64,000 nucleotides of DNA from Amoebophrya sp. A120 (GCA_905178155.1 CAJINV010000005.1:1862054-1926053); one strand, 5' to 3'. Counted from the stretch's first letter, positions 685-64,000 are shown. Notes: generated from the sequence alone by a model not told the origin. Translations and numbers: made by a program.

Positions 685-3600
685 CTACGGCAGTCTCTCC
701 GCACTGTAGTCGCACCTGACGTGCTGATCGTTCATTCGTCTCCGCCCGAACGAAATGTGTCCCGTATCGGCAGTCACGTTGAAGTCCTGCTTCGCGTAGT
801 GCCCGTTTCCCGGCATTTTGAAGCGACGCGCGTACAAATCGATGATGTATCTCCAGGTGAGCTCGTGGTTGAAGAACTCCTTATCAATGTAAAAGTGTCT
901 GGGTCTGGAAGAATGCAACCTGTCATGCTCATCTGAAGCATGCAAAAATCTGTGTTGCATGATTACCAAAAGTCGTCCAGTTTTGCTATTGACCAAGTCG
1001 GGAGGGAGTTTCTCATGCAGGATAGGCATGAGAGAGATCGCGCAGACTCTGGCATGCTAGGTCCTGCATTCCAGACCTCATGGGTCATGGAAAAGATGCA
1101 GGACAAGTCGCGCACTCTTCCAGACCCAGACATTTTTGCAATTGATACTCCTCGTCGGTCAACAAATTCCACCGGGACGCCAAGTACTCCGCCCCGGTTT
1201 CGCTTTCCTCCCGGGCAAACGTATCCACATCTTCACCCGGGTCTCGCTTACTCGGTCCCACGGCGCAGAGCCGTTGGTCCACGTAGCCGAGGCGGCCGGC
1301 TTTGAGGCGGTCCGAGGGGTAGCTATCTTCGTTGGAGAACGTCGCGGGCCGCATGTACTGGTAAATTTCGTCGTTGCGTGATGTCGGAGGTGGCGGGGTT
1401 CCTCCAGATTTTTGACTTGAAATAGATGTTGCACTTGAAGTGGATGAAGATGTGGCGCTGCTCCCTCTGGTTCTGCTGACGTCCTCCCGCTTTGATATTA
1501 TCTTCTGTTCTTGACCAAGTTTCCCACAGGTCGTGTAGGGCACCCGGAAAGAGTGTCGCTTCGCGGTTGCAATCACCCGATTGAAAATGGTGTCTTCGTC
1601 GAAGAGAGGGAGCGGCTTGTCGACCGTCTTCCTCTCTGTCCCTACCGGTCCCACGAGCTCCCTCCGAACATTCTCCCACACCGCCTCGTAGTACGGCGAC
1701 AAACTGAGCGCAAACACCGTGGCCAGCTCGTTGAACTTGTGCGCCCGGCGAAGCACGTTCAGGAGGAGAATGTTGGTCCGGAAGCAACACCGGTGCGCGA
1801 ACCGCGTGTGGATATGCATTGCAAATATCGATCTGGGTCTGAAAGCATGATGTAAACTTCTGCAGCTGCGTGTTTCACACCACACAAAAATCTGTCATTC
1901 ATGCACCGCAATAAAAGTTGCTCATTTATTCTTGTCACCAAAAAAATCCGGCATTTGTCATGCACACTAGGCATTGCGAAACCTGCTCAAGACCTGTGAT
2001 GCTAGGAGTTGCATGCCAGACCTTCTGTGTCATGCACAAGCAGCATCACACTCTACTTCCAGACCCAGACATATTTCCATGTGATAGTGGAGGATCTTCA
2101 GCGATTCCCGATGCCCCTGTCGGCTGATCCAGTCGTCCTTAATCATGGCCTCGTGCCGTCGGCGAAACAGCGCACTCGGGTCCTTGCCGTTCGCACCAAA
2201 GAACGGCTTGACCCTTGGTAGACTTGCTGCTGTTTCGCTCAGCTGCTTTTTCTTCCTTTTCTCCCGCCTCCCCTTCTCGTTGTCCACGTCAATCGCCACC
2301 CAGGGCTGCGGAGTATGCACCTTCGCAAAAGTATGATCACACTAGTCCTTCTAGAGTACTAATTGCATTTACAAATTGTCATTCTCATTGTCTCAGCAGA
2401 AAAAGTTAAAGTTGAACTTTTAGCGCTGATATTTTTAGCTTTTAGGGCAGATAGCTGTCCTCACGCATATGCCTGCAATTTTAGAATTACTAGCACGGCG
2501 GGTATGATACTAAGTACTTTTGCACCGCATACGGATTTGCATTCGGGGATTTTCCGACCCCCGTCGCCCACGGCTCGAAAATGTCCGCCATCCGTATGGG
2601 AGTGTCAGGACCGAAATTGACAAAATCGAAAAATTTGTAATGCATAAAAGGTAGGGCACATATGGCCTGTATTGGGGAGCAGCCAAATGAGACCGATTGC
2701 AAGCCTGTTTAGGGAAGGCGATGCGCTGCCGGAGTAGCACGACAGGAGCAGTCTTCTTTGCCGAAACAGCATGACGGGCGATTTTGTTGCTCCCGAAATT
2801 TGTCGTGCACCACTTGGAAACTAAGGCTCCAACTGGTATCCATTTTTATGCATCACAAATTATTTCGATTTTGTTGATTTCGATCCTGACGCTTCCATAA
2901 TCCGCTTTGGTATCTTATCATCGGACATGATGGGGAGAAACCCCGTTCCCCAGAGCAGTTCCGGCTTCTTGCTGTAGTCCCCGCTGGACGACTTCGAGTC
3001 CTCCTGCGAAGTAGAAGACGAGGTGCCGGGCGGCAAGTTGTAGAGATAATTCGTCTTGCTCCCATCCTCAAAGCTGTACAAGATCCGCATGTCCTGCACG
3101 ATGTGGTCGATGCCGAACTGCGCGGCCTGCAGGTTCAAATCGAACAACGCCGGGCGCTCGAACAGAAAGGCGTTGCCGAGCTCGAAATACGCCCGGGTGA
3201 GGCGGTTTAGGGGCAAATATTCCCACAAGTTACCGTTGTAATCCTTGTTCCACACGCCCATCTGGTACCGGATCATGTTCCTTTTGTCCTTCGCTAGCGC
3301 GGACAGTTGGTAGTCCCGCGCGAACGCCTGCCCGAATATCAAATGTAAAAGTGTCTGGGTCTGGAAGAGTGCACGTTTGTCATGCTTGTCTGGCATGACG
3401 CTCAAATCTGTCATGCACGTTACCCAAGAGCGCCACTTTTCTGTCATGCAGAACACAGTTTGTCGTGCAGAATATGCAACACCTAGAAGCTCAGAAACTT
3501 GTCATGCTGAGCGAGCACTTGTGGCCTCCTCATGATACGCCACCCAGCATCACAAGTTTCCAGACCCAGACATTTTTGCAATTCATACCGAAGTGTTTGT

Positions 3601-6494
3601 CGCTAGTCCAAACGAGTGCGGCGTGGATGGAATTCGCCTGTTGCTTGATCATATCAAAGAAAAAAAGTTCGTCACGATCACTCATGCGCATTTTTGCAAT
3701 ACAAAACTGTCTGTCATGCGTAAAAATGCATCACAGCCAGTGTTCTTTACAGATTTCCCTAGTGTTTCTGTTAGTGGACTTGAGAACACTCGCACACACT
3801 TACACACGTTTGCTCCACTGAGCTCGCTATCAACAGCAATTCAGTGAATTCTCTCAATTGCAAGTAAGCAAGCAAGTGACGCAAGTCTCTTGCTGCGTTA
3901 CATCCTGTAGGTTCAGTTCATCAAGTTTCAGGATGTGACGAAATTGCGTATGACCACAACTCACCAGAATATGACTGAATTGCGTACGGCGCAAACAGTC
4001 ACTCTGATCATTCTGCTTGTGTGTGGTGTGTGACTGTTTTGCGTATGGCGTAAACAGTCACCTTGATCGCTCTGCTTGTGCCTGTTTTGCGTATGACGCA
4101 AATAGGCACCTTGATCACTTTCCTCTTGAATTTCATGGGATTCCTTCTAGATCATTTACATCCTTCCGACACTTTGTGACCGTTTTGCGTATGGTCCAAG
4201 GAGTGCCGTGATTGACTCTACTTCTACTCTAGTGGTTGTAGTGTGACTGTTTTGCGTATGGCGCAAGCAATCACTATGCCCACTGTAGTCAATTTGGGGG
4301 ATGTGACTGAATTGCGTACGGCCGTAGTGCCGTCGCGATACCAGTCAGATCTAGTCAATTTCTCATCATCTTCTGTGTCATTTCATCACGGAACAGGCTT
4401 CATTTGGGGCGATCGTGTTACGTGTGTGCGGGATCGATTTCCATGACCAACAGTTTCTGGAATACAAGGAAAGTTTGTGATGCTGAGAAAATTTGTAATG
4501 CAAAACCTGCAAGTTAGTGACTGTGACAAACTTTTTTCTCTCCATACATCACACCCAGCTGGTACTGCCTGCTGGCGAAGGGATATGCAAAGGAGCAAAA
4601 AAGTCGTGCTACAGTTGACGTCACATTTTTGTTGTGAAAATGCTACAGTTGATGTCAAACATTTTTGTGTAGTTGCACCCGGCAAGACAAACAGTAAACT
4701 TTTGTCACGTGCTGTGCATGTGGACAATGCTAGCAGCACACCTCGTTCCACGCATTTTTGCCCCACTTACGATTTATGCGTTTTTGCATAGTCATTTTCT
4801 CTTTCCTGTTTGTGTTGCACTTGCTGAAGTTACTGTTTGTTACAACAATAAAATGTGTGTACTCTAACACAATTTTCCCTACTCGGGATAACGGAAGTTC
4901 TTGCTTCGCGAGGAATATCACGTCCGCGTCCGGGTGGAGCAGGTCCGTGCAGAGGAAAGTAGTAGTTTTTCCTCCTCTACTACCGTTGTCATCCTGCTCT
5001 CCGGAAGGAAAAATAGCTTCTCTCACCTTCCCAAACCGCTTCGCATTCCCCCACGTGTCCTTCCTTTCCACTTGTCTTGCATCCTTAGGCACAATTCCGC
5101 CCGCGCCGCCGTGCATGATATCCCAAAGCGGGGACTCCGCGAACGGCATCCCTTGCCCCGCCTCGTGGTTTTGGTACAACTTCTTCTGAATCCTCGGAGC
5201 TGCACCAGCGTCGGAAGCTGATTTTGTAGTTGTTGGTACTAAAAACTCGAATTCTAAAAACGTCCCCTGCGGCTGCTGCTCCGCGATTTCTACGCGCTTC
5301 CGGTCTCGGAGCTTCATTGTGTTTTGCGCGTTGACGGCGTAATATCCCGCGGCGTCCTGCAGATTTGCGCGCACGTCTTTCTCCACCATCCTGTACTGCA
5401 GTTTTGCGGCGAGATATGCGAAGAAAAAAGTGTTACACTTACACATTGTGTTGCGAAACAAGGTAGACAGGCAACCTTTGTCATGCAGGACATGCTTGCC
5501 AGCCTCATTTCACTCGTGTTTTCCCTTTATAGTCTGCGCATCACAGGCTTTCTAAGCCATGTCTAGAAAGTTTGTGATGCAGAAACTCCAACATCAAATG
5601 TGTAACTGTAACACTTTTTTCGTGGGATACGGGAAAAAGACTATCTGGGTCGTGTATTGTTGGGAGGTTGTCGCTGGTCCAAAGCGTCATGGCCCGCTCT
5701 GACCCGTCTTGCTTCAAAGCCGGCCAGGCGGTTAGTACTGGCGCAGGTTCAGGTCGTTCTTGTGAAGAAGTAGAAGAAGTAGAAGACGCAGCGCCGCTAC
5801 TTCTTGTTGTACTGGAAGTTGTACTGCTACTTTTACTAGTACTAGCTACGATTGTGGTCATCGCTCGGTCGTTCAGATCGCCGCGCAGTTCCGTGACATC
5901 TCGGTGCATCATCCAGCGACGGAAGGACTTCCGCAATTTCCAGTTCGGAATTTCAGACTTATGGATCCCATAGTTATCGACGTTCGTCGTGAAGTTTCTC
6001 CGCATTGGCGGGTACAGTTGCGTCATGTTGTTGAACCGGTTCAATTCTACGAATAGGTGCAGGTCGAGCGCTGGCCTGGGCGAAACGTTCTTCAACTCGT
6101 TGTAGGTTACGCGATCGGTTAGCACCACCGCTTTCGCACCGGGGTGGTGCACGGCGAGGGTGTACAGGGAAATGAACAGGTCGCGGATGTTTCGGTGGAG
6201 CTCGAAGTCCTTCATGTGCTCCTCCTTCCGGTCTTGCCTGAACTGTGTATCCACATTCACAGAGAGGAAGCCAAAACAATCCGGGACCGGTGGGGCAGGG
6301 GGTTGTGAAGCTGAGGTGGCTGCGGCAAGAACAAAAAATTCGTGTTGAAATAGAAACGATAGACTTGTTGCCAGCATTAAAAATACTGATACTCCGTTGA
6401 GAAAATGCGAAACGACCGCCTTTGCGTTCGCAAAGCGGAGAGGTTGCACCATCATTTTGTAATAGAGACGGGACGAGCTTTCAGGTCGTTGCAC
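685..6494 (-). CDS. Multi-exon hypothetical protein, possibly a type II membrane glycosyltransferase-like protein (may be two genes)
   Basis: ORF pieces 5541-6494, 4730-5461, 2860-3456, 2030-2320, 1085-1885 and 685-1029 join in frame after introner removal (e.g. LTDEE|FFNHE, LKILH|TRFAH, ANP|QPW, KHFG|QAF). It has an N-terminal hydrophobic segment and a DxD-like LLHPDADVIFL. The join across 3642-4890 is unresolved. Confidence 0.55.
882..1147. mobile_element. Introner family A (non-canonical intron)
   Basis: TIR TATCAATGTAAAAGTGTCTGGGTCTGGAAG / CTTCCAGACCCAGACATTTTTGCAATTGATA; flanking DR CTCCT; excision restores frame. Confidence 0.92.
1813..2086. mobile_element. Introner family A
   Basis: TIR containing TCTGGGTCTG/CAGACCCAGA; DR GTGGA; frame restored. 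Confidence 0.9.
2314..2531. mobile_element. Introner family B (diverged)
   Basis: TATGC..GCAAAAGTA / TACTTTTGCA..GCATA; DR CGGAG/CGGAT; frame restored. Confidence 0.8.
2595..2899. mobile_element. Introner family C
   Basis: TIR TATGGGAGTGTCAGGACCGAAATTGACAAAATCGAAA and its inverse; DR ATCCG. Confidence 0.9.
3337..3587. mobile_element. Introner family A
   Basis: Family A TIRs; DR CCGAA. Confidence 0.92.
3935..4335. repeat. Array of about 7 degenerate 32-bp palindromic units (GTGACTGTTTTGCGTATGGCGCAAACAGTCAC)
   Basis: Copies start near 3935, 3971, 4030, 4078, 4176, 4243 and 4303, with irregular spacers. Confidence 0.8.
5415..5629. mobile_element. Introner family D
   Basis: TIR TATGCGAAGAAAAAAGTGTTACACTTACAC / GTGTAACTGTAACACTTTTTTCGTGGGATA; DR CGAGA/CGGGA. 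Confidence 0.85.
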
Positions 6495-7248: not shown

Positions 7249-10200
7249 TCAGTCCCCAAAATACGCGGCCGACGGGCTCTGCGGTGGCAAGTGGTTGTGT
7301 GCCGGCGTATTCAACCCGCTTTGAACGAGATTTATCTGCTGGTGACTCCACGACCCGTACTTCTGACCATTACCTCCAGCCGTCTCTTTACTGTTCGAGC
7401 CCCTACTGTTGTTGTTCCCCCCTCGTCCGTTGTTTCGGCTGTTGCCCCCGCCACCACTCCTCGGGTGGTTATTGCTGTTGTGCTGACCGGCTTGGTGACC
7501 ACCGCCGCTGTGATTCAGCTGATTAGTTGTCGACCAGGACACCAGATCAGCGAAGGCAGAGCTGGAATTCGAATTATGTTGACCAGAACCTCCGGCTCCA
7601 CCCATAGTGTTCACCGGCGTCAGCCCGGCGGCAGAACTTGTAGTTCCTCCAGCGGCCGCAGGACGAGGACCAACGTAGTTGTAGTTGTGCTGATTGCTGT
7701 TGTTCACCCGAATGCCGACGCCTCCACCGGGGGAGCCGTGTGGGTTACTATTATTTCTCACAAACTGGTGCTGTTGTAATGCCATCGGACGGAGGTTGGT
7801 TGTACTATTATCAAAGGAGCAAGTGAATCACTTTCAAAAGAATCATAGGGCCGAAAAAAAAAAGAATTCGGAGCGCCCCCAACTGCCGTAGCGCCTGCAG
7901 CTTTTTCCCCCGCGCCAGACACAGCTGGTCGGTAGATTGCAGTGGGCGAATGCTTGAGAAGGCTGCGACCGAAAGCCCCAGGCGTCGCATTTTGGTAAGG
8001 AGAAGACTGCGAGACGTAGTGCGCAGAAGATGCCATAGAAGATACCCCAAGACCAGCCCCAAAGCATCATACCGTGGTGCATAATGCTACCCCGCATGGT
8101 GCTACTGGCGCACTATACTTACTCTTGCCCTACTCTACTGTTACCAAGTGGCGGAAGTGGAACAGTGGAGGTGTAATCACTTGAGATGCTCAGCCTGTTT
8201 CAGACAAAAAAAAAGCCAAACCCACTTGATATCTGCTTGGGTGATTTGACGCGAAAAAGACGTGTTTCGGGCATCAATTTGATGCCAAAAGTCGCGACTT
8301 TTTGCAGGGGTGATTCAAGCAGATACTAAGCGGGAGGAGTCAAATGAATCATAGGGCTAATTGATAGCTACAAAACGCAAGGTGATTACACCTCTTTTTT
8401 TGCTTCGAAAAAGATGGATTTTTGGCAAAAATTGAACTTTTTTCAGAAAATGCGACACCCTCGGGACGCTACGCCCGACGGTATGGAGGTGTAATCACTT
8501 CAGTTTTGTGGCGTCGCTTTTCCTATCTTTAGCAATGGGCTTTTGCTTGGTATTTTGGGTTGCGAATGCTTCCCCCGAGTTGTTTGCAAGCTATTCAGGC
8601 ACGATGGCCCCCGCGTCCACTCATGGCCATTGCGTTCGGCCCCCGTAGCCACCAACCAAATAGTGCAAACCTTATCGAGAAAGGCGCGACTTTCCTGAGA
8701 AGCGTCGCTGTGTCTCAGGTTACTTGGTTGTATATGTTGGGCGCTACCTTATGCGTGCGAGCCTGGCCATGCACTGCGGTACTTGGAAGCATTTTTTTTC
8801 CCGTATGGTGATTCATTTGTAATGTGATTCATTTGCCCCTGTGATAACTATTTGCCATCGGACGAAGGTTGGTTGTACTATTTTGCGGAGGTACTATCTG
8901 CGAGGCTACGAGGCTGTCGAAGTAGTTGTACTGACCACCTCCACCATTGTTGACCATGCCCTGCTGGTGCGGACCTGCTGCTCCGGGTCCGGGTCCGGCG
9001 GGCCCCGTATACATAAACGGATTCAGATTGTTCGCGTTCAGCAAAATCTGCTGCTGTTGCTGGTGCTGGAAACTCTGATCGAAGGCGGCGTACATGGCGA
9101 CAGTGGGAAGATTTGCGTGGTTCGAATCCACGCTGCTCTTACTCCTGTTGTTGTTTGTACGGGACATCGAAATGTTTATTTGCTGGCTCATGTGCATGTT
9201 GTTGTGCTTGCCTCCTTGTCCTTGTGCTTGACCACCTCCCTTGTTATTCATGTGGTTCATCGGCAAGGACGAGTTGTTGTTCATCATCTTCCCGTTGCTT
9301 TTCTTGTTCCCCTTGTTCGGCCCGTTGTTTGCTCCAGCACCCTTCTGTTGTTGATCTGGACCTCCAGAATGGTGAAGATCATGGTGGTTTTTACTGCCCT
9401 TCCCATGTGAGGAGGACGAACTCGATTTTCCCGTGCCCACCAAAACACCATGTTGGTTTATCTTGTTTCCCTGGGACTGAAAAACTGCGGGATTAATAGT
9501 GCTGTTGTTGGCCGCACCAGCACTTCTGTTGGCAGGTTGGAACTCGTTCCGGTTTACATTGTTCTTGTTGTCATCAACAACTCCAACAGAATTATTGTTC
9601 TGTCCCGCGGCTCCAGAAAGCGGCCCCTCGCCGTCGTCACGGATGAGTTTGCAGAGCTTCGGGAGCACGTTCCGCTCATTCACGGCCGGGTTGGGGATAC
9701 TCAGAAACGGAAACACGTCTTGCTCCTCCAGGGAGCTTCGGAAGTCGAGATACCTGATAGAAGTTGTCACGACTTCAAGATCAAGTTTACGTTAACGTTT
9801 AGTCAATCTTTCTCTATCAAAACAATCAAAATCAGTGTCATAATTGATGCCCTTGTAGTCGCCTCCAAACTTCTGCTTCTGAGGACACATGATGATGCAT
9901 GAATGCAGTATGCACCATAATTACAGGTGCGCTTACACTTATTTACGATTATTTTTTTCATCTGTACCAATACCAAAAGATCTCGCTCGTGGGTCGTCCC
10001 GTCGGGTTCAGATCGGCATCGAGCTCCTCCTCGGCGACGATTTTGCAGAGAAAATTAACCTTCGATTCCACGTACCCCTTCAGGTACTTTTTCCGCACCA
10101 GCATGGAATTCCAGTTTTTCACGTCCCCGGTGGAGGCTTCGATGACCGGAAGGCTATGCAAGAAAAAAACTGTGAAAGTGTAAGTTTCTTGGAGGAATAG

Positions 10201-13200
10201 CAGCACAAGTTTGCTCTGCATGACACAGAAAACCTGTATTTGTGTAGCTAGTACTTGAAAACACGTACGAAAATAGCCACTGATGCATGTCCAGCATGAC
10301 AAGCGTATACAGTTTTGCACTTTCTGCAACACAAAGTTACACTTACACAGTTTTTTTCTTGCATAAAGGTTCTCCTGCATGCAGTGCATGAAGTACTCCT
10401 CTTCGGCAATGGTCTGTTGGTGTAGTTTGAATTTTATCATATCATTTCATGGCAATTAGGCTATTCAGGCATCAAGAAAGCAGGCATCAAGAAAGCAGTA
10501 GCGATTCTTTTAGAACGAGGTGTAATGTGCGACTACACAAGTTTTCTGCAAGAATTGTTGTATTTCTACATGAAACAAATGGCTGCAGAATAAAATCATT
10601 ATCATACCAGATCCCTTGGCACGTCTGGGCCGGTGGAAAAAAATTCCGATGGCTGCAAGGGCTCGCTAGCTGCTGGGTAGGCCAATTCGCGACACAGCTG
10701 CAGATACGTCCGATACCAGGATTCGTAGACCCGCGAGAGTTTGTGCTTCAACAGGCTATTTGACCGTCTGCTGCTGCTATTGGACGGCGCGGGAGACGGG
10801 GCAACAGCACCACCAGCAATGCCTCCGCCGCCCGGAGTAGATAATTGCTGCGGTTGTGCTACCAACATTGGAGGTGCCACTATCGGGTTGTTCGCACCAC
10901 CACCGGTCGCCTTCGCGGCGCCCGCTTGTTCGGGGCTCGACGTGGCTGAGAAGGCAGGAAGAGAGCTCTGCTCAATAATCCTCCTGCAGGTGGGACAGAA
11001 AGTCGGTAGCATGGACCGCGTCAACTGCTTCCACTTTCTGCGGCACAGCGGGTTCCCGCAAACGCGAAACACGTGCTCGAACTCGCCGGACCGCGAGGAG
11101 CGGAAGATCAACGCCTCCTCGGCGCGAAGGGACACCTGCAGGTCCTTGTACCTGGCGAGTTTATTGTGTTGCGGCACTACTAGTTCACCTTTGCTCTCAG
11201 CTGCACTCCTGGTCGAGGATGAATTGGCGGAGACAATCTCCCGAAGCAGCTGCAGCGTCATCTGCACTGGTTCCTCTTTTTCTTTACTTCCGGTGCCGGT
11301 CCTTGATGAAGCTCCTGCGACGGAGACATTTGTGGTTTCAGTGGCACCAGTTTCTTGTCCGTCCACTCTACCACTACCGCCATCGTCGGTGGTCAACAGC
11401 ATGTTCATCGGATTTGCCGCGTGGTCCGCTATCCCCGAGCCGGGCACGGCGGGCAGCACCGGGTCGGAATGCCCGATCGGCAATATCGAACAAAAAAGTG
11501 TTAATGTTACGGTTTTGCATTTTTTGCATTAAAAATTTTTTGTGGGTTCACTGCCCGTATTATGTGAATGCGTAAAGAGACCCGCTCACTCTTTTAACTA
11601 TTGCGGGACTCTGAAGTAGCTAACTTTGTTTGAGTTAGCTAGTGCACAAGGTCTGACGGCGCGGAACTTCGCCTACCGGGGCCGCCCCATGACGCACCTT
11701 CCGCGCCACGTGGGCTCCTGGACCCGGTCGCAGCGCCTCCACACCAGCTCGGTGTCGGCGGAGCCTGCTTTTCAGCTGTTTGGGGGCGCTTCGTGGGCGG
11801 CAGCTACTGCAAGCCACCTGGTTGAGAGATGATCTCGAGTTGCCACCATCCTCGCCGCCGCCATCGACCCTGAGGATGGACCTGCTTTTGGCAGGCAGAG
11901 TCGACCATACCGTGCTGTCTAAAAAGTGTTAACGGTTTTTTCGGGTCATAGGGAATTCCGCCGAAAAAATCCATGATTTGCCATCAATGTGAGGCCAGAT
12001 TTCGCAGTCACCCAGAAAAACCGTTAACACTTTTTAGACAGCATGCTATGATCGACTTACCCTGTCCAAAACCCTGCAGGCCAAGAAGTACGGGCTCTGG
12101 GGAGGATAAATCGACCATAGCGCGCTGTCTAAAAAGTGTTAACGGTCATTTTTTGGCATTTTCATACAAAAAAGCATGCTTTTGGCAGGCTGGGGCGATC
12201 ATACTGCCCATTCTAAAAAGTGTTAACGGTTTTTTTGGGTGACTGCAAAATTTGGGCACTTTGTTGCCCGAATTTTCCCAATTTCCCTCATCCTCGAAGT
12301 CACAGCTTTTCTGCTTCATGGAGAGAACTTGGCGAGATGGCTCAAAAGCTGCAGCGCGATGACTAGAAACGCAGCGAGCCTATACAGTTCTATGGTGGCG
12401 ATATGGTGGAGGGTTGCGCGGACCTTTCGGGGGGTTGTCGCATAGACTGATATGCCGACACATGACGCACGCCTTTTATGACAGACTTCATGGCGAAAGG
12501 TCGCCAACATCACTGCCATATCATGCCAAAACAGTCAGAGCCGCGGCGCCCGTGCTCTTCCTCCGGAGGTTGCGCTAGACTCGGGCGCGGAATGGAATAC
12601 TTTGTGTACTAGCTAGCTCAAACTGATGACGCTACGACAGAGTTCCGCGGTAGCTAGTATCATGAAAAGTGCTGACTTTTACATGAAAAAAAAGCCACTG
12701 AGCGGAAAAAAATTTTTTGTTCCAAAAATCGCCGAAGCCGTAACGTTAACACTTTTTTGCTCGATATTTTTTAGCACGGCAGGCAGCACCGGGTCGGAAT
12801 GCCCGATCGGCAGCCGGAGTATCAAAAGGAAAAATCCCCCCTCCCCATATCGAAACGAAATTTCTGATGCTTGATTTGCGTACACAAATCAGGCCCGTCT
12901 TGCTGGGGAGGACTGCAGGCATATACCAAGCCTGGGTCGAGGGGTTTTGACGTAGGGGACTAGCATGACAGACGTCGGCCCTGTAAGCCCAACAGCATCA
13001 CAAACCGCCGGCATAATGCGGCGGACTCTCTGGCTTTGCCTTCTTGCAAGACAGACAGGATTTGTGACCTCAAATCTGCATCACAAATTTTCAGACGAAT
13101 GAGTTTTCAATATGGGGAGGGGGGATTTTTCCTCTCAATACGGAGTTCTTCATCCTCATTCAGCGTATGCATTAAGTCCAGAGGGTTTTTATTCCCTGCC

Positions 13201-14985
13201 ATCGTGCTCGCGGAGCGGCTGTTCAAATACCCGGCGGGCGCAGACATTACACCCGCAGGACTTGGTAACGACAAGGAGCTCGACGTCATCGTGTTTGGCG
13301 CGTTGGTGCCGTTATTTGTTCCGCCGCCATAGTGGGACGGGGTTGTGCCATTCGGGGAAGACACGTTTGTCCCCGCGCTGTTGTGCCTCTCCGCGTAGAT
13401 CAGCTCGCCGTGCTGGTTCCGCAACAGAGAACTGGTCGGTGTGTTAGACCGCGAATCTCCACCATGGTAAAAATTCGTCGGCGTGCCCTGGACCGACTTC
13501 GCCAGACGGCTCGGGACATCAATCGGGAAGCTGTTGGTCCGCTGCGCCGACGCCATCATGGCCGAGGGGCTGGATTCCGATTTTCCCTGGTGTATGGATT
13601 GCAAAAATGTCTGGGTCTGGAAACTTGTGATGCTAAAAGTGAATGGTAGACGGACTGCAATACGCAGCTATGCATGACAAATTTTTTGGCTCCCATGTCT
13701 TACGTATTCCGCATGGCAAACTGCGTTCTTGCATGACAGGTAAGAGGGCGTTTTCGTGCCTATGCAACACAGATTCTCAAGTCATGCCAGACAAGCATGA
13801 CAAACTTGCATACTTCCAGACCCAGACATTTTTACATTTGATATGGTGGATCAGCTGACCACTCGTCGTTCTCGATCTACCGGCGGACGTAGCGGATTGG
13901 TATGGAGTTCTCAAATGTTACATTCTCAACTGTTACATGAATTTGTAATGCAAGAACGGCAAAAGTGAAAGGGGGAAGATTGCTCCTTTTGCATTACAAA
14001 TTCCGCACAGATTTACATGCTTTTTAGCCCTCCGGGGATTTGTCATGCGTAGCCGCTTGATTATCTGCATCTGGCGGCTTCTGCTTCAGGTAGTTTTGCA
14101 TGACAAATCCATGTAACAGTTGAGAATGTAACGTTTGAGAATGCCATAATTGGTTCGGCGTTCTTCTGCCGGAATTATGGGTCGTCGCGGCCGCGGCGGA
14201 GGTGGTCGTGTGTCTAGCGAGCATAGAAGTACTTGAAGCCGCGGCCGAGGGGGTGCCTTGGATCAGCTGGATGTTGGCGGCGGTCAGGTTTATCGGGGTG
14301 GGTTGGGGGTTATTACTACCAAACTGCTGCTGTTCTTGTAGCCGCCTGCGATTTTCGTCAAGGTTTGACGCGGTCTTCTGCCCGATCACGTGGACCCGAT
14401 CCGCCTCCTCCACGTCGATCGTCAAACGCTGGGCCGCGGCGGCCATGTTCGGCGTTGTTTTCCCCGATCCGCCGCCCGTCAGGGGCGTTTTGTTCGCGCC
14501 GGTGGAAGTCGACTTCGGCGTGGAAACGCGGCTGTTCGTTGACAGCTCGGGAGGATTTTTCGTCGCGTTGGCAGCACCGCTAATGTTCAACGCGTTTACC
14601 AGGTCGGTTTTCACTGTTGGTCCGCCGCCGACCTGATTTTCGTTTTGGATGGTGGATCATGGGAGAAACGAAAGAGAAAAAGAGAGGGACAATCACGAAA
14701 TGAAGCGTATAACTGGTAGTGAATTCGGCACTTTTTTGACCCGAGACACGGTGATGCTTTGTGTCCTCCACCAGACACAACGAGAACGACCACGCAGGTG
14801 CGTACCATGGAAAAGCTACGTAGTGCATCAAGTGTTGTATCATAACCAGGATAGACTAGCTGCACACAACAAGCAAATTTTGTCCTTACGTCAAACTCCT
14901 CCACAAGGCCCTTCAGTGCCTCGAGCAACTCGTCCCGCTCGGCGGAGTTGCTCGAGTTCCGGAGGCGGTCCCGGATGATGTCCAT
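7249..14985 (-). CDS. Large multi-exon hypothetical protein with N/G/Q/S-rich low-complexity regions and a CxxxxC...CxxC Zn-finger-like motif
   Basis: ORF pieces 14611-14985, 14024-14614 (GT-AG intron 14633-14889 gives EEFD|VGGG), 13107-13604, 10602-11483, 9958-10440, 8829-9770 and 7249-7785. Introner junctions checked are in frame; motif VCGNPLC...FCPTC. Two joins (about 9780-9960 and 10440-10600) are unresolved. Confidence 0.65.
7809..8846. mobile_element. Long (1.04 kb) non-autonomous TIR element/intron, family E
   Basis: TIR TATCAAAGGAGCAAGTGAATCAC / GTGATTCATTTGCCCCTGTGATA; DR ACTAT; internal repeats TGGAGGTGTAATCACTT. Confidence 0.82.
10155..10365. mobile_element. Introner family D
   Basis: TATGCAAGAAAAAAACTGTG / CACAGTTTTTTTCTTGCATA; DR AAGGC/AAGGT; QENL|PVIE in frame. 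Confidence 0.9.
11484..12766. mobile_element. Long (1.28 kb) TIR element related to family D
   Basis: TIR TATCGAACAAAAAAGTGTTAATGTTACGG / CCGTAACGTTAACACTTTTTTGCTCGATA; internal AAAAAGTGTTAACGG repeats; no 5-bp DR, but a 39-bp exon duplication. Confidence 0.82.
12820..13140. mobile_element. Introner family G
   Basis: TIR with GGAAAAATCCCCCCTCCCCATA; DR CGGAG. Confidence 0.9.
13593..13843. mobile_element. Introner family A
   Basis: Family A TIRs; DR TGGTG. Confidence 0.92.
13901..14148. mobile_element. Introner family F
   Basis: TIR TATGGAGTTCTCAAATGTTACATTCTCAACTGTTACATG and its inverse; DR ATTGG. Confidence 0.9.
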
Positions 14986-19197: not shown

Positions 19198-20024
19198 TTA
19201 TCCTACCAGAAAAGGCACCAGACGCACACCCATCACGCAAGTACTAGTACCGTGGTCATGATGCGTCATTTTTCCCCAAGGAGACAGATTCGTTGGAGCG
19301 AGAAAGGTAGGAGCTGTACTTTCGAATTCGACGGATACGGAACAACCGCGGTACACGAGTGTACTACAGGGAACAAATTTACTTCTCCAGAAAGAATTGA
19401 ACCTGCTCTACCGTCATGACGGTAAAACTTACTACGGGTCCTCGTGCGCTTTTCTTCTGCTTCGTACCGGGTGAGGTCCCGGCCGACTCTCGCGGAAATC
19501 CACACCGAAAACCATTGTCGCGGGGAACGAGAGTTGTTCTGCTCGTGACCAGAGATCGTCAAACTCTGTTTTATTTCCGGCACCGTCGTGGTTCACCGGA
19601 ACTAACCCTACTGGAACTTCCACCGCCTCCACCAAAAACTGTTGCCAATCAAATTTCAAACCAGTTGTTAGTCCGGAAGTAGACCTGCTGTACGCGTTGT
19701 TCCGGCCAATCTCGATCTCGGCTTCGCCGAGACCCGGGAGCAACCAACCGGAACCTTGCGGGGAAAAACACGGCTTCGCAGTCGTGGTGGAGTCGTGCTG
19801 CTTCTATGCAATACAAATTTATTACCGTACTCTACAACAACACAGCTTCACGTCTCTACTACTACAAAATCAAAATGCACCAAAAATTTTCCCACCACGG
19901 AGTTGACCCGACCTTTACCGCATGTGCTAACTTGTCCTGTTGAAGAAGGTTCTTGGGCGGGAATGCTGCAGAATTTGTCATGCATGGAGAGCCTGTGTAC
20001 GTCTGCGTCCGAGTCCGTCGTCGC

Positions 20025-39374: not shown

Positions 39375-39758
39375 GATTTTTGCGAAATAGCAAAAGAATA
39401 CTAACGATTCCTCTGGCGAAATTACGTGAGCGCAACGAAGACAAGCCGCTGTTGATTCTGCGTCTGATCTTCGTATACAATGCCCAATGGTAAAAGTCCT
39501 CTTATCAAAACAACGAACGCGGCGAGGACCAGGACCGTCGCGTTCTTGTCATTTTCACTACATGTATCTCTCACCCGCGTCCTCAGCTGAAATAACGGCC
39601 GCCAAGGACATCTATCTTGGTCACTCTGCAAAGTATCTTCCTCTCTCCTCTCACGGCGTCCGAGAAAAAAACAACTGAATCTGTCTCGCGTTAAAACAAA
39701 GAAAAGTGACATTCAAAATGTGTACATCACTTCAAAAAAACCTTGTTGCTTCTCCTCG

Positions 39759-51028: not shown

Positions 51029-53498
51029 TCACATCTTAAACCCCGTCTCGACCGCCCCGGGCGGGTTCGCTTTAGGCACGCAGAAGTCCCACGAATAGTG
51101 CTTCTGCCAACTCCCCACGGAGCTCGGACTCTGCCGCACCACACACACCGGCCACTGGTAGTCGGAGCTGCCATTCTGACCGGCTTCTTGACTTGCAATT
51201 ACCGGCACCGGCTGGCAAATCGCTGGCGCGTCCGTGCCGAACTGCCGGAGCTGCTCGTCTTTCTGTAGCCGGTCTTTGTCGAATCGGGATAGCAGCAATT
51301 GCACACTGTATTGGTCCCGTTTCGGGACTCGCCTCAAGTCCAGCAGTTTCGATCCGGGTTGTTTTAAGTACTTGTTGGGGTGATTCAGGTACTTGTTTTG
51401 CACGAGATCCCTGTACGCCTGCTTGAGTTCCGATTCATCCAAGCAGGTGCCAGGGCGGTGAACTGAGGGAACGCTGTCCCGGGCGGAAGAGTCGGAGCCG
51501 AGAGATCCCGTGGTAGCGGTCGCGGCCAGCTGCTGCCTCCGTATCGTCGGAACGCAGTAGTCCCAGTATCGATCCGTGCTAACGCTCCCGTTCTCGAAGT
51601 AGAGTTTGTGATCGGAGAAACTGGGATCAACGGAAAACTTCCTCTTCATACTCTCGTCCGCTTCCACCGCACACCAATCGAAGGCCGTGCCCTGGTGCTG
51701 CGGCCCGCAGGGGGTGAGGCACTGCTTCCCGAGCACCGACATTTCGATGGGGTGGTCCGCGCCCGATTTCCCGCCTCCGCCCTCCGACACCGTCATCTGC
51801 GCGGTCAGGTTTGCCGGATCTCGCAGCTTGATCTCCCCCGACTCCCGGATCGCGTCAAACGCAAGGCGGTGGATGAGTTTCGTCAGTTGTCTATCCTGTG
51901 TAAAATAAACGTCTCGTCCACCCCATTCTTGTAATGCGAGAATCTGCATCCCGAAAATATTTCTCATACGGAGCCCGTCCATGAGAAGCATTTACTGGTC
52001 GCGTTTCGGAATTTGGCATGCTCCAATCAGCATGATTATCTAGGAAGGTCTGTGATGCTACTGAACTACCTAAACAGTACGAAATTACGAGGCCGAAATC
52101 GTCATGCGCAATAGCCAAAGCTTGTTGATTTGTCTAGCTGACTTCCCATCTTAACTATGGGGTGGAGACGTTTTTACATAGGATAGTGCCGCGCTTTGGT
52201 GATTTCCTCCCCGAGCAGAACCTGCAGTTTCCCGCTGTTGTAGATGATTTTCTCAAACTGCTGACGTATTGCAAGGAAAAATCCCCCAGTTCCCATACCG
52301 AAAACGAAACCTGTCATGCTGTATTTGAATACACGAGTCGACTTGTATTGCTAGAAGGCCAAGAGCCGCAGTCGTGGCCTCGTTTGCAGGCACTTCGTCA
52401 TGCTGTTTCCCACTTCCAGCTGCCTCCTGTCATGCTGAAGATGCAAGGCTTTCCCACGCCAACCAGCACTACAGTCCGCATCTTTTGCCTTCGAGCATGA
52501 CAAAGCTCATTCGTGGCCACAAATCTGCATCACAGATTTCCGTTTTGATATGGGGAGGGGGGATTTTTCTTCTTGATATGACGCGCTCTTCCCTTCCCGA
52601 TCATGGCATCCTCTTCCGCTTTCGTTTCCTTGTCCAAATCAAAGTCCTCCGGTGTATTGTTTCCCTTTTCCTTTTCGGATTCAGCCTTGTCGGAAAAGTC
52701 GGCCTGTTTTTTCAGAATGTTTTTCCGGACCTTGTTGTATTCGGCGTAAAGGTTTTCGATCGCGGATTTTATCGGTTGGAAATGAGGCTCCAACTTCTTC
52801 TCGAAGATGTCCCGGCCCTGGGAAAAAATTTTGTATGGATTGCAAATATGTCTGGGTCTGGAAGAAGACAAACTTGTGATGCGCATTTCAGAATACAGAA
52901 AAATCTCTCATGCATAGGTAGCAAAAGCTGCTCACTTTCTGTCACCAAAATGGGGGATTTGTCATGCGGATTCGGCATTGCGGAAGCTTCTCGAAACCTG
53001 TGATGCTAGCGCTTCCATGCCAGACCTTCTGCGTCATGCAAAAACAGCATGACTCTTCCAGACCCAGACATTTTTGCATTTGATATTTTGCGGATTTCTT
53101 CCATTTTCGCGTCGAAATCGACGAGATTTGTCTCCTGTTTGCTCGTATCAATTGCACATATGTCTGGGTCTGGAAGAGAGCAAGTCTGTCATGCGTGTCT
53201 GGCATGACTCGAGAATCTGTGTTGCATAGGCACGAAAAGGACCTCTTACCTGTCATGCACAAACGCAGTTTGCCATGCGGAATACGTAACACATGGACAT
53301 GGCAGCCAAAAAATTTGTCATGCATAGCTGCGTATTGCAATGCGTCTATCATTCACTTTTAGCACCATTGCAGGTTTCCAGACCCAGACACATTTGCAAT
53401 GCATAGCTCGCCCGGGCGAACAGCTCCGAGTTCGCGAGGATCTTCTGCCCCGCTTGAAGTTGGGACGCAAGGTCCAGGAGCTTCTCGGATTTGGCCAT
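51029..53498 (-). CDS. Hypothetical protein: helical N-terminus plus two Cys-rich modules ending W-D-Y/F-C (kringle/FN2-like)
   Basis: Start MAKSEKLLDLASQ; five exons separated by four introners; CLTPC...DWCAV...YWDYC and CQPV...VCVV...SWDFC. Confidence 0.65.
51892..52185. mobile_element. Introner family H
   Basis: TATCCTGTGTAAAA..CCACCCCA / TGGGGTGGAGACGTTTTTACATAGGATA; DR TTGTC/GTGCC. Confidence 0.82.
52267..52578. mobile_element. Introner family G
   Basis: GGAAAAATCCCC..CCCATA TIR; DR TGACG. Confidence 0.88.
52834..53085. mobile_element. Introner family A
   Basis: Family A TIRs; DR TTTTG. Confidence 0.92.
53146..53405. mobile_element. Introner family A (inverted relative of 13593-13843)
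   Basis: Family A TIRs; DR GCTCG. Confidence 0.92.
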
Positions 53499-56656: not shown

Positions 56657-58425
56657 TCACTTCTTCGGGTACCGCACCGTTTCCGCGCTGAGCGCCTCCT
56701 TTTTGATTTGCCTCACGCTGCGTAACAGGTCCACATCGGAGATATCAAATGTAAAAGTGTCTGGGTCTGGAAGAATGCATGTTTGCCATGCTTGTCTGGC
56801 ATGACTCTTTAATCTGTCATGCACGTTAGCGTTGCCCGAAAGCCCTATATTTCTGTGATGCAGAAATGCAGTTTGTCATGCAGAACAGGCATAGGCAACA
56901 CCTAGAAGCTCAGAAACTTGTCATGCTGAGCCAGCATTTGTGGCCTCATCCTGAGACGCCACCCAGCATTACAAGTTTCCAGACCCAGACATTTTTACAC
57001 TTGATAGGAGACGGACCTTGACATTTCGCTCGCCGGCCGGTTTTTCACCCGTTTTCCGATATGCAAGCGTCAGGATTGAAATCGTCAAAGTTGAAAAAGT
57101 TTGTGATGCATGAAATGCAACCCACAAAGTGCCTGTCTTGCAGAGTAGGCAAGGGAGGCAGATAGTAAGCCTGTTGAGGAGTAAAAATAGAGCTGCTAAA
57201 GTAGCATGACAAAAGGCGTCCTCCTTACCCAAACAGCATGACAAACTGGGTTTAGGCACCGCCAAAATTTGTCATGCGCCGCTTGGAAACTGAGTTCCGC
57301 CTGGCATCCATTTTATGCATGACAAATCATTTCAACTTTGTCGATTTCAATCCTGACACTTCCATATCCGAATCGCCAGTCGTAGCCTTCGTAGAGCTGG
57401 GCGGACGGGTTTTTGCAGCACATGGCGAATTCTCAAATGTAAAAATGTCTGGGTCTGGAAACTTGTGATGCTGGGTGGCGTCTCATGATGAGGCCACAAT
57501 TGCTGGCTCAGCATGACAAGTTTCTGAGCTTCTAGGTGGTGCCTATTCTGCATGACAAACTGCGTTTCTGCATCACAGAAAAATGGAGCTCTTGGGTAAC
57601 GTGCATGACAGATTTAAGAGTCATGCCAGACAAGCATGACAAACATGCATTCTTCCAGACCCAGACATTTTTGCATTTGATACGAATTGCGACGAGTTAT
57701 TGTTCATGGGGTTCATCTGCCCGATGCTGTTTTTCATATACAAATTCACCGTTCATTTTTCTTTTCTTATATTATACTTACTTCATCAACACCGAAACCT
57801 GAAAAGTGGTAGAAAACAGAAAATGCTTGATGCAGCCTGTGCACTATGACAAGTTCGAAGACCAAAATCGATGACGTACTATATGGACAAAAATACTATA
57901 CCGGAAATATCCGCAACTCGGGGCGAAGAATAGACTCCCGTCCGTGATCTCAAACAGCTGTCTTGAACTCGTTGACTCGCCTGCCTCCGATGCGGGTGCG
58001 TCCCGGAAGGATCTTGGTGTATCGTACCCGTTCTGTAGCGTGCCAGCACAGTTGTGGACGTTACCTGCGAGAGGTCGTTAGAAAATCTTCTAACGATTTG
58101 AAAGAATGAATTCGAGATAGATGAGTTACACAAAGAGTTGCATTTGATTCATCTTCATCGCTCCTGCACTTTGGGATGCATGTTGAAATTGGCAGTATAT
58201 AAGATTCGGTCCACCTAATACAAGTCAAAGGTTTCAAATACTTTTTGGCTTTGCCGGCACGACGTAGTGCGCGTTATAATCTGCACTTGCTGTCTCCTCG
58301 ATCATCGCTCGCTGCAAGGGTTCCCTGCACTTGGCGCCGCGGCCCTCCCGCGCGAGCTTGGCGTTCCATCTTGCTCGGCATTCGGTGTCGGTCACGTCCT
58401 GCCAGAAGCGGGCGGAATACCACAT
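56657..58425 (-). CDS. Small hypothetical protein hidden by three consecutive introners; upstream exons tentative
   Basis: After excision, 57716->56657 reads MNPMNNNSSQFAMCCKNPSAQLYEGYDWRFGKRVKNRPASEMSRSVSDVDLLRSVRQIKKEALSAETVRYPKK*. ORF 58234-58425 may be the first exon. Confidence 0.6.
56743..57006. mobile_element. Introner family A
   Basis: Family A TIRs; DR GGAGA. Confidence 0.92.
57060..57366. mobile_element. Introner family C
   Basis: GTCAGGATTGAAATCGTCAAAGTTGAAA TIR; DR TCCGA. Confidence 0.9.
57431..57682. mobile_element. Introner family A
   Basis: Family A TIRs (left end TCTCAA variant); DR CGAAT. Confidence 0.9.
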
Positions 58426-60063: not shown

Positions 60064-62942
60064 TCAGCGTCGCAGCCGTGTCGAAAACGTAGCCCCCTCT
60101 CCGAAGTTCTGCGAAGCTGGCCACCATGCCGTCATCAACGCTCGCATCTGCCATGAGTGTGAGTCGATTTTTGCAGATTATGTTTATTTTTCCCAGACCC
60201 AGTGGAAGATTTTTATTTTTTCAGCTCAAACTACAAGTCGCATATTTTTGATTGATATACATGACTTAGTGCGTCACTTGGACGATAAAGTAGGTATTCA
60301 TTGCTGTTCACGAACATCGTTTACAAATTAAGTACAACTAGATGTATAAAAATACCTTCCTCCGACTTGTTCTTGTTTTTTTGGTCGACCACCCGCACCA
60401 GCTGCGACAGCGGGGCGAACACGATGTCGTACGGCAACACAAACTGCAGCGAGACAATCCCGCTGTTCCGGAGGTTTGCCCACTTCGTGCCCAGGGAGAA
60501 ATCCACGATCGGCACCCGCTGCCGCTTCTTGGCCCAGTGCTCGAAGGTCGTTTCGTTGCGCGAGGCGAGGTGGAGGTGGAAGCCGAAGAAGAAAATGAGG
60601 AGGACCGACAAGAAGGCCAAGACGGTCTGCGTGGTGATCGCGAAAAACGGCGCGTAGCCCTCGGTCAGGTACGGGATCACGACCAGTTCGTTCAGCAGTA
60701 AACACGCAATCGCCAGTATGCAAGCAAAAAACTGTGTGAGTGCACTAAGTTTGTGATGCAGAAAACGCAAAAGAGTTGTTTTACACTTGTCATGCCAGTA
60801 AACAACCACGAAGTCCTCTTTTCATGCGTGTTTCTGTTTTCACGTGCTAGCTGTGCATTGCAGGCCACTTTCTCTCTCATGCAGAAAAAATTTGTCGTGC
60901 TGTCAGCCCAAAAAAGCTAGTACACTCACACAGTTTTTTTCCTGGATACCCAGCGTGTTCATCAGACAGTCCGCGGCCCGGACGTACCAGGGAATCGCGG
61001 GTCGTGCCAGCCGGAAGACGGTGAGGCCAAAAACGAGGGAGCAAAAAATCGGAATCGTGGCCGCGAAAATTACCTTCAGCGCAACCGCAATGTTGCCCCC
61101 GTAGTACCGCAGGAAAAAGTGTTTGATCCAGCGGGAGGACACCGCGTCAAACATGACGCACGACATGCTGGCGAGAAGCAGGGACGAAATAGCGAGCAGT
61201 CGGACAAAAGGCACGTAGTTGTAGTATCCAATGGTCTGGAGCAGAAACGGGCACCAGTGGTCCAGCTTCAAAACGCACCGACCGGTCATCTGTTTTATTC
61301 GGTTTGCACAATTTGATTTTATTAATTCCGTGGGCCGGATTTCCTTCCCAGGGGAACAGCTTTTGTTCATCGCATGGCGGGAACGCAAAACGACATCATG
61401 TGGAGAAACGAAAAAGAATTTGTACATCAAAAACCCAAGGAGGTAAAATTGTAAAAATTTATGGTTATTCACTTAAGTAGTACCCTGCAGTGCTGGGCCC
61501 GGTCTGGCTTGAAGCCCTGGCAGTGGATGCAGCCCCGGAGGCGGTTGTCCGTGGTTCGCTGGAGCATCCAGTCGCTCAACTGGTCAACGTCGTACTGGAA
61601 ACCCCACTTATAAGAGTGCACAACCCCCCCCCCCCTCGTCCCCCTCATTTGACACAGGTGTAATTTTTAAAAGCACTAGAAACACCAGCGCATGACGATG
61701 ACAGGCTCTTACTTCTTCTAGGCCGGGTGTATAAAGTGCTACTGTTCCTCAGGCTACTTGTTCCGAAATTTGGAATGCTGCAGACTGTGCCAAACATAGG
61801 GCAGCAGCTCCAGCTGTTGCTGTTTTTCGTATTTGCCTGACAAATAAGAAGAAAAAGGGCGGCGAGCTGTGCACTGTCATAACACGTGTACGGGATATAG
61901 TTTTTCTTCTCCAGCCCGCCGAAGATTAGGGAAAAGAGCTGCGCGAGAAACAGGGTGAGAAGCCCCTTGTACAGGTACCAAGTGCGCTCGTACCGGGGGT
62001 CATAGGAAATAACTAAATTGCTGAAGAAGTAGTGCAGCAACGCGATGGTGACACTCAGGGACACGATCGGCACGCGATGGCAAACTGAGTTTTTGAAAAG
62101 ATTTTTCTCTATCAATTTCGATCAACTTATGTTCTTCAGGTACAACAGGTTCTTCATTTTTCCGAGTGTAATTGTAAAACGCGAAGAACCTCTTATGTAT
62201 TTCATTCAACAAGAAAATCAAAACTATGCGGACTCGGACTCCTCCCTGTTCTTGAGAGGATATATACAGATCAGTATTTACAATTACAGTCACACCTCCC
62301 TTGCAGTTTCCATCAAATCACGTTGACAAGAAATTCTTTACCTTCATCCCCCCAGGTCTTTGGTCTCGCTCCGGCGGACTGTGTGGAATACTGGCTGCTC
62401 AGCTGGTCCGCTGCGGTCGTGCTGCCGTTCCCCGTTTCTTCGGCCGAGGAGGCCGACGAGGCGGAGGAAGAGGCGGAGGTTGGCACCTCCGTCGTCCGCC
62501 CGGAAATCGTCCCATTCTTTTTTGTCGAAAACAAACCTCCGCGATTCACGTCGCTGTTCTCTTCACTACTCGCATCATCTTCCTCCGAAGAGGAATCCAC
62601 TTCCGAGTCCGTCTCCACGTGCTGCGCGGACCCGAGGTCCTCCTCCTCGGATCGATCTTCTTCGGAACTAAGGTCGTCGTTGTCCCCGTGATATTCATGC
62701 TCCGCGATCGGCGACCGCTTCTCCAGCGGCGTGTCCGGCTTCATCTTCATCAAGGGCTGCTGCTGGTGTGCGGCCTGTGTGGGGACAGGTGCTGAGGAAG
62801 AATGAAGATCTTCCGCCTGTGCAAGCACAGATGTTCCCTCTGTAGTGCCTTCTTCCCATTGCTCACTCGGGGGGGCGGCAGAAGAACCTGCGCCGGTTTT
62901 CTTCTTACCCTTACCTTTACCTCCGCGATTGTTCCGACCCAT
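60064..62942 (-). CDS. DHHC-family palmitoyltransferase (DHWC variant); 3' end tentative
   Basis: Exon 61484-61608 GCIHCQGFKPDRAQHCR is spliced by GT-AG intron 61290-61483 to MTGRCVLKLDHWCPFLLQTIGYYNY. TM helices, then the NETTFE (TTxE) motif; acidic N-terminus at 62313-62942. Confidence 0.88.
60717..60948. mobile_element. Introner family D
   Basis: AAAAAACTGTGTGAGTG TIR; DR GCCAG/CCCAG. Confidence 0.88.
61609..61881. mobile_element. Introner family J (diverged)
   Basis: TATAAGAGTGCACA / TGTGCACTGTCATA; removing the element plus 5 nt joins YIPYT to GFQYD in frame. Confidence 0.7.
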
Positions 62943-63789: not shown

Positions 63790-63873
63790 TCAATCGGATT
63801 CATCTTCATCACGTTCATCGACCGGCTCGCGATCATCCTTATCGCGGGGAAACAATTGGTGTGGACGAGGACG
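63790..63873 (-). CDS. Probable last exon of a gene extending beyond the window
   Basis: RPRPHQLFPRDKDDREPVDERDEDESD* abuts an introner end. Confidence 0.35.
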   Translation of the reverse strand, partial: RPRPHQLFPRDKDDREPVDERDEDESD

Positions 63874-64000
63874 TATCCACTGCAAACGTGTCTGGGTCTC
63901 CTGGAAGAGTGCCCCTGTTTGTCTGGGTCTGGATGTATGCCCCCGCATCATCACAGATCATTTTCTGAATGGTTCTTGATGCCTAGTATCCCACAACATG
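63874..64000. mobile_element. Introner family A, truncated by window end
   Basis: TATCCACTGCAAACGTGTCTGGGTCT..GGAAG. Confidence 0.7.

Follow-up and report, generated by a model that had tools for sequence, protein, structure and literature searches.

In a 64,000-nt stretch of the genome of Amoebophrya sp. A120 (GCA_905178155.1, CAJINV010000005.1:1862054-1926053; termed the window here, with positions counted from its first letter), we identified 52 whole introners, that is, introns bounded by terminal inverted repeats (TIRs) that run from TAT to ATA, and found one and the same cut register at all the junctions read. Read in gene direction, the intron is N+TAT...ATA+NNNN, with one nucleotide before TAT and four after ATA (the 1+4 register). 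In addition, mutations at the element ends are polar, sparing the bases U(+2) and A(-7) of the intron. As of 2021 it was unsettled how A120 splices the more than 60% of its introns that lack GT-AG. The single register makes this question testable, since it tells where a branch would lie (+1 joined to -7) and which two bases would be expected to matter.

The elements themselves are already known. They belong to the published A120 introner class, since Farhat et al. (2021; PMC7789003) describe the same TAT-starting inverted repeats and direct repeats in the same organism: 29,850 non-GT-AG copies of about 240 nt in 1,954 families, whose inverted repeat reads TAT, seven variable bases and then As, with direct repeats of 3-5 nt (the Fig. 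S19 legend gives 5 bp). Both this description and the contigs analysed below support the initial annotation, made from the sequence alone, in calling them non-GT-AG introns of that class. What appears to be unreported is the cut rule together with the two spared bases. According to the text and legends of Farhat et al., splice sites are variable relative to the hairpin, the border position is unknown and there is no clear dinucleotide signature, whereas here 1+4 fits every junction read, removal does not depend on the repeats, and mutations avoid U(+2) and A(-7). The Fig. S23 legend of that paper, with repeats 1-5 nt from splice sites, hints at offsets, and its figures (3, S19 and S23) may show part of the rule. 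The accessible portions of PMC7789003, PMC12130899, PMC12005148 and PMC11453091 state no fixed register. The A120 families of Gozashti et al. (2025; PMC12130899), compared through 19 of the 58 A120 rows of one supplement, are likewise classed as TIR DNA elements, without an assigned superfamily; they measure about 250-300 bp and have mixed splice sites. They differ in that the duplications, called automatically, are 2-5 bp long and that the families follow several different splice-site models, with no single cut rule in the passages compared.

A single cut register

Junctions were read in contig runs X1, X2 and X4 of one sample, whose RNA nature is a computational guess backed by the GT-AG introns that the contigs skip. 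Twelve introner-type segments are skipped as joints, together with three GT-AG introns (these are the 15 reported of 26 joints); two further introner removals are read where contig pieces abut, and about 15 follow from a single end combined with the length. Two of 30 bins are empty. For each junction every equivalent cut was enumerated, and the registers were then compared. The 1+4 register fits all 14 directly read junctions, and 20 of 20 when six partly inferred ones are added; among the 14, the registers 0+5, 2+3, 3+2, 4+1 and 5+0 fit 10, 11, 9, 7 and 4, respectively. Two direct joints allow no sliding at all (16325/16595 and 17822/18026). At 19801-20054 the contigs open the intron at C+TAT, passing over an in-frame GT 9 nt inside. 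The expectation that element ends are used instead of nearby GT-AG sites held for the contigs at this intron; one eroded copy (19199-19466) is retained in contigs of two runs.

Removal of six elements with 5 nt each leaves a 2,978-codon open frame, compared with 899 or 1,031 codons when 3 or 4 nt are taken, a test that determines the removed length only modulo 3; the rule that removal of the element plus 5 nt restores the frame was borne out by this frame as well as by the contig joints. Moreover, the alignment with the ortholog P0006 (56% identity) is ungapped over 60717 and 61609, so that removal of element plus 5 nt gives back the ancestral sequence at both sites. Sliding the cut within the repeat makes GT-AG readable at 47728; 882, 33819 and 51892 can be read as GA-AG or GC-AG in this way (4/52 in all). 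This departs from the initial claim, made for the elements examined there, that sliding does not yield GT-AG.

The introners, introner-type introns and control introns are listed below (DR, direct repeat, with matches out of five). The support for removal follows the semicolon; "frame" stands for sequence plus frame, and entries with nothing after the description come from the sequence.

882-1147, minus: introner, main family, DR CTCCT perfect; joint 875/1147 in X1, X2, X4
1813-2086, minus: introner, main family, perfect DR; joint 1807/2087
2314-2531, minus: introner, DR 4/5; joint 2308/2532
2595-2899, minus: introner, 2595/46574/57060 family; contig pieces and 58-nt exon length
3337-3587, minus: introner, main family; piece ends 3331, length arithmetic
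3652-4546, minus: long introner, 895 bp, DR 4/5; length-inferred, +5 removal agrees with the 90 nt separating the pieces
4584-4890, minus: introner, DR 4/5, cut at most 1 nt before TAT; piece starts 4890, zero mismatches
5415-5629, minus: introner, DR 4/5; adjacent pieces 5409/5630
7809-8846, minus: long introner with perfect DR, 1,038 bp, open reading frames of 92 codons at most; joint 7803/8847
9754-9973, minus: canonical GT-AG intron (control), donor GTATTG; contig joint
10155-10365, minus: introner, DR 4/5; joint 10149/10366
10414-10607, minus: canonical GT-AG intron (control), donor GTATGA; joint 10413/10608
11484-12766, minus: long introner of complex structure, 1,283 bp, TIR 19/20, direct repeat absent; piece end at 11479, other side inferred from bin depth
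12820-13140, minus: introner, perfect DR; piece starts 13141 inside longer record, weaker
13593-13843, minus: introner, main family, opposite to 3337 and 53146; 52-nt exon length in X4
13901-14148, minus: introner, perfect DR; X4 pieces
16330-16593, minus: eroded introner-type intron, DR 1/5, 3' end ACA, exact 1+4; joint 16325/16595, no slide, P0004
16877-17052, minus: introner, DR 4/5, cut 1 nt or more before TAT; joint 16872/17054
17170-17416, minus: eroded introner-type intron, DR 3/5; joint 17165/17418
17556-17759, minus: eroded introner-type intron, DR 1/5, 5' end TAC; joint 17550/17760
17827-18024, minus: eroded introner-type intron, DR 1/5, 5' end TAG, exact 1+4; joint 17822/18026, no slide
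18096-18263, minus: canonical GT-AG intron (control), donor GTACAG; joint 18093/18262
19199-19466, minus: eroded introner-type intron; spliced in A120 annotation, kept with stop codons by X2 and X4 contigs
19805-20053, minus: introner-type intron; joint 19799/20054, C+TAT at 20054, P0004 annotation with GT at 20045
20123-20400, minus: introner, 3' end ATG, DR 4/5; joint 20117/20401
22776-23054, plus: introner in copied CNNM-like fragment, DR 4/5; taking out the element +5 makes the fragment colinear with paralog P0003
23088-23338, plus: introner, main family, same CNNM-like fragment; comparison with P0003
29280-29538, minus: introner, main family
31901-32205, minus: introner; frame
32368-32526, minus: introner, short family; frame
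32634-32879, minus: introner; frame
33819-34098, minus: introner, DR 4/5
34176-34384, minus: introner
34449-34716, minus: introner, main family
35786-36044, minus: introner, opposite to 51892; X1 record 2 length arithmetic
36213-36540, minus: introner, DR 4/5; X1 record 2 length arithmetic
36601-36836, minus: introner, DR 3/5, exact 1+4 cut; piece starts 36838, length
37022-37335, minus: eroded introner, 5' end TAC; adjacent pieces 37016/37336
37530-37859, minus: introner, perfect DR; X1 record 2
37897-38243, minus: introner, 3' end ATG, DR 3/5; piece starts 38244, length
41782-42050, minus: introner, main family; in 2,978-codon frame
43870-44025, minus: introner, short family, 3' end ATG; in 2,978-codon frame
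46574-46885, minus: introner, DR 4/5; in 2,978-codon frame
46941-47206, minus: introner, main family; in 2,978-codon frame
47728-47989, minus: introner, main family, opposite to 882, GT-AG readable by sliding; frame
48655-48803, minus: introner, short family; in 2,978-codon frame
51892-52185, minus: introner, DR 3/5; piece ends 51887, length
52267-52578, minus: introner, perfect DR; X1 record 4 length
52834-53085, minus: introner, main family
53146-53405, minus: introner, main family, opposite to 13593
56743-57006, minus: introner, main family
57060-57366, minus: introner
57431-57682, minus: introner, main family, one end TCT
60717-60948, minus: introner in DHHC gene, DR 4/5; P0005 fits cuts 1-5 nt before TAT, P0006 ungapped across site
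61609-61881, minus: introner in DHHC gene, DR 3/5; P0005 fits cuts 1-4, P0006 ungapped across site
63874-64000, no strand: main-family element cut by window end

Anatomy of the elements

The window was searched with an unbiased inverted-repeat scan and then with a targeted scan for inverted ends plus a flanking 5-bp repeat. In the targeted scan TAT...ATA gave 36 matches, 25 of them with a perfect flanking repeat, compared with 0-18 matches and 0-2 perfect repeats for each of the remaining 63 trinucleotides, and with 1-5 matches (0-1 perfect) in 30 block shuffles used as a control. The scan and BLAST yielded 41 whole copies, and the contigs or the A120 annotation 11 more, some of which are 895-1,283 bp long and some of which have eroded repeats. 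The 52 copies, 149-1,283 bp in length, make up 24.8% of the window. The direct repeat is 5 bp long, since it is perfect at this length in 28/52 copies and at lengths 3, 4, 6 and 7 in none of the 52; by position counts the inverted repeats fit the published motif. The scans confirmed the coordinates and anatomy previously assigned to the elements. The class had been recognized correctly, while its count of about 39 and size range of 149-328 bp were too small, and alignment replaces the supposed nine or so families by 5-6 multi-copy groups and about 20 singletons. Nearly all copies do start with TAT and end with ATA (one end letter is altered in 9/52), and the seven copies singled out for mismatched repeats (2314, 5415, 10155, 22776, 33819, 46574 and 60717) all have them. 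Likewise, the copies 882 and 47728 (88% identity) and 13593 and 53146 (87.7%) do lie in opposite orientations.

The elements combine TIRs, a target duplication of fixed length, a lack of coding capacity and many copies, the hallmarks of miniature inverted-repeat transposable elements (MITEs), and are likely MITE-type transposon insertions. In the genomic-type contigs (X5, one genomic-type sample) the bins holding elements reach a summed depth above 100,000 versus about 30, a sign of copy number. No transposase was found in the long copies, and three long copies among loci totalling 0.5 Mb from another assembly had no Pfam match. The curated Rfam covariance models, including group I and II self-splicing introns, gave no match in the window at the gathering threshold, and the element pattern had none in viral contigs. 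The 1,283-bp element (11484) carries nested copies of its own terminal repeat and no 5-bp repeat, and is flanked on either side by the same 39-bp stretch of exon (11444-11482 and 12774-12812). In the other assembly, locus L024 holds a 1,104-bp TAT...ATA element (505-1608) with a perfect 5-bp repeat, an internal AGAGG/CCTCT short-repeat array and a 238-codon frame without Pfam match.

The introners of Aureococcus and Micromonas are, like those of A120, non-autonomous DNA transposons turned into introns via target-site duplications; however, in the accounts available they use canonical splice motifs, which the A120 elements do not.

Probable removal at the RNA level

Removal is very probably an RNA-level event in the 1+4 register, and a polar one, since the register follows gene direction, the genomic-type contigs keep the elements and the end mutations are polar. 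The X5 contig 36018-41887 reads through five intact elements at depth 26, with neighbours at 25-30; at 90% likeness the coverage was dominated by other element copies, and contig pieces were used instead. In sister pairs of opposite orientation each member is removed (3337 and 13593; 35786 and 51892), as the initial annotation had anticipated in calling removal orientation-independent. Its suggestion that excision could occur in DNA fared less well. That a transposase or repair acts on DNA in some life stage, with transcripts coming from element-free genes, would suit the transposon anatomy, and the one genomic-type sample, whose contigs drop rare forms, leaves it some room. We nevertheless consider it very improbable: the elements stay in the genomic-type contigs at background depth, register and spared bases track the direction of the gene and not that of the element, the retained copy 19199 sits among spliced neighbours in the same contig, and no transposase was found in A120 by Farhat et al. 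(PMC7789003, accessible text), nor in the three long copies.

What is read at the element ends

Four copies with 0-1 of 5 repeat matches are cut in register (11484, which is partly inferred, 16330, 17556 and 17827), so the direct repeat is dispensable. A strong terminal stem seems dispensable too: the ends of 16330, 17170, 17556 and 19805 have 6-8 ungapped matches of 20 and a predicted in-register pairing probability of at most 0.02 (gapped stems being unscored), yet all four are cut in register; 19199, a copy of the same kind, is kept in X2 and X4. Sense folding showed no preference over antisense (21/49).

The base at +1 is uniform in the window (G15, A14, T13 and C10 of 52). The nine end variants of the window lie at +4 (4), -5 (3) and -6 (2), with none at +2, +3 or -7. 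For comparison, 173 loci with 316 copies were found by the terminal-repeat pattern in the other assembly, none overlapping the window; 233 of 288 copies have a perfect 5-bp repeat. A codon model, right in 45 of 48 confident window calls, oriented 166 of the 316 copies and left 150 unoriented. Among the 166, and excluding the poorly bounded copy L137 (three variants, one at -7), 11 of 13 single variants lie on the side predicted beforehand (p = 0.011): the ratios are 5:0 for -5 versus +2, 5:0 for +4 versus -7, and 2:1 for +3 versus -6, so that the sparing of +3 is unconfirmed. A at -7 is kept in 52/52 window copies and in 165/166 oriented copies of the other assembly. Since the -5 and +4 classes oppose each other in mutational direction, a plain strand bias would not account for this polarity. 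Under 1+4, GT-AG ends occur in 0/52 copies of the window and 7/136 of the other assembly, where AG stands at -2/-1 in 19/136 (14%) versus 10.9 expected phase-matched (p = 0.017), and where the insertion phase is skewed to phase 0 (64, 33 and 39 of 136; loci L001-L173). The canonical donors seen start with GTA in 6/6.

The initial annotation had taken the symmetry of the ends to indicate excision guided by structure or a transposase, and had disfavoured U1/U2 recognition. This view is not supported by the data, in which the cut is asymmetric and directed by the gene, eroded copies are still cut, end mutations are polar and genomic contigs retain the elements. Recognition of the U2/U6 type therefore remains viable and becomes the leading reading.

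Proposed mechanism and its rivals

We propose, with a probability of about 0.55, that the introners are removed by a relaxed major spliceosome working without U1. A transposase, itself unseen, would insert the element and thereby duplicate 5 bp, a duplication that is observed. Both ends read TAT inward, so either orientation gives the same signals. The 5' cut, falling one base before TAT, places TAY at +2..+4 as in the genome's canonical GTAY donors, with +1 free, and the relaxed spliceosome may read NUAY as a donor without G(+1). The 3' cut, four bases after ATA, joins four bases of the upstream repeat to one of the downstream repeat, which is the original exon without net change; as the target site is rebuilt exactly in either orientation, a transposon is able to occupy a quarter of the window while the proteins stay unaltered. 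The invariant A at -7 would serve as the branch adenosine, the 3' site being set by distance with a weak AG preference. The terminal hairpin may join the ends in place of U1, which would aid young copies without being essential. U(+2) and the branch A are core spliceosomal signals. For A120, Farhat et al. (2021; PMC7789003) report U2, U4, U5, U6 and nearly all spliceosomal proteins but no detected U1, and in their Table S4 T is second in all nine top non-canonical sites of A120, with TT starts listed for A25. A precedent for a relaxed spliceosome is Fritillaria borealis (PMC13326754), whose introns are also transposon-derived and escape GT-AG through a modified major spliceosome; however, they prefer AG-AC and AG-AT ends and U1 is present there, according to the available text, while +1 and the last bases of the introners are nearly free.

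Several observations weigh against this proposal or its basis. For a spliceosome, 7 nt is a short distance between branch point and 3' end, and the 5' site would be masked by a stable terminal stem. G at +1 is not enriched in the other assembly (43 vs 41.7 expected), AG ends only 14% of copies, and two of the 13 variants there fall at +3, predicted to be spared; on the transcribed strand, the stems have no surplus of G-U over A-C (36 vs 29, p = 0.46). At 19801 an in-frame GT-AG is bypassed in the contigs. The junctions that fix the register all lie in minus-strand genes, and at the plus-strand 22776 six possible cuts encode the same protein and leave the register unfixed. The X2 and X4 contigs keep the eroded copy 19199-19466, stop codons included, and X1 has a contig break there, so partial splicing of the 19195-19467 intron is likely. 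Finally, X1, X2 and X4 represent a single sample with a guessed RNA label, minor alternative cuts could sit among the 11 unreported joints, and the RNA runs X8, X9 and X10 had zero exon coverage and so give no test of splicing.

A rival that we hold to be possible but on balance unlikely keeps the 1+4 cut in RNA but assigns it to an endonuclease and a ligase that would read the paired ends independently of the spliceosome and release a circle or linear product, as proposed for the nonconventional introns of euglenids. Staggered cuts at constant distances from a terminal stem, no requirement for G(+1) or AG, a nearby GT ignored, and the undetected U1 (PMC7789003) would all suit it. Euglenid nonconventional introns resemble the introners in TIR-paired ends at a constant offset from the splice sites, repeats like target-site duplications, free terminal dinucleotides and a probable MITE origin; in the portions available, they pair +3..+7 with -9..-6 (PMC11170887) and are reported as circles in Euglena (PMC11282704), a lineage unrelated to Amoebophrya. 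Their motif is CCAGG at +3..+7 with CCTG at -9..-6, whereas the introners have TAT at +2..+4 with ATA at -7..-5 and lack the euglenid pairing of CAG at +4..6 with CTG at -8..-6. As a class they do not carry the U2-type ends GT (or GC/GA)...AG. Against such an enzyme stand the four poorly paired copies cut in register and the spliceosome-like character of the weak AG bias and of the spared U(+2) and A(-7); an enzyme of this kind was not seen, though no genome-wide search was made.

Canonical introns here are strict GT-AG with pyrimidine-rich ends and introners ignore both, which a single machine must reconcile. A dedicated second spliceosome or guide RNA for introner ends, such as a divergent U1- or U6-like RNA apart from the GT-AG machine, would do so, and Fritillaria handles its non-canonical ends with duplicated U2AF subunits (PMC13326754, available text). 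We judge it improbable, as sequence evidence is lacking, the window has no Rfam match and the available text of Farhat et al. (PMC7789003) records no minor-spliceosome snRNAs (small nuclear RNAs).

On a more far-reaching and tentative reading, A120 would have a third nuclear pre-mRNA intron class, for which U(+2) and A(-7) suffice as definition: its machine would do without G(+1), a terminal AG and U1, and would measure one base before and four after the ends of the transposon itself. Any TAT...ATA insertion duplicating 5 bp, in either orientation, would then become a scarless intron, and most "signal-free" non-canonical introns of the genome would be aged copies under this rule.

Host genes and annotation

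The public A120 proteins P0004 and P0005 match the window exons at 100% and 99%, respectively. At 19801-20054 the P0004 model takes the in-frame GT 9 nt inside the element (20045), with the same AG end, and so has three residues absent from the contigs, an annotation error or a minor isoform; the 1+4 register would guide a re-annotation of the genome, one public model in the window using a GT unused by the contigs. A GH5-like frame runs on upstream of the annotated start of P0004, with an in-frame stop at 21403-21405.

A 2.5-kb insert (21778-24341) lies between 44-bp direct repeats. On the plus strand it holds residues 354-900 of a CNNM-like gene in a copy 96% identical to P0003, which begins and ends inside introners (21823-22013 and 24186-24297) and has two whole introners within. 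It is either a captured fragment or a misassembly, and deleting it gave no single continuous frame. A palindromic repeat at 27620-27730 is unlike the introner families. The GT-AG intron of P0005 at 60149-60355 starts with G+TAT and ends with ATG+GCAG, thus also fitting 1+4, and is possibly an old introner turned canonical.

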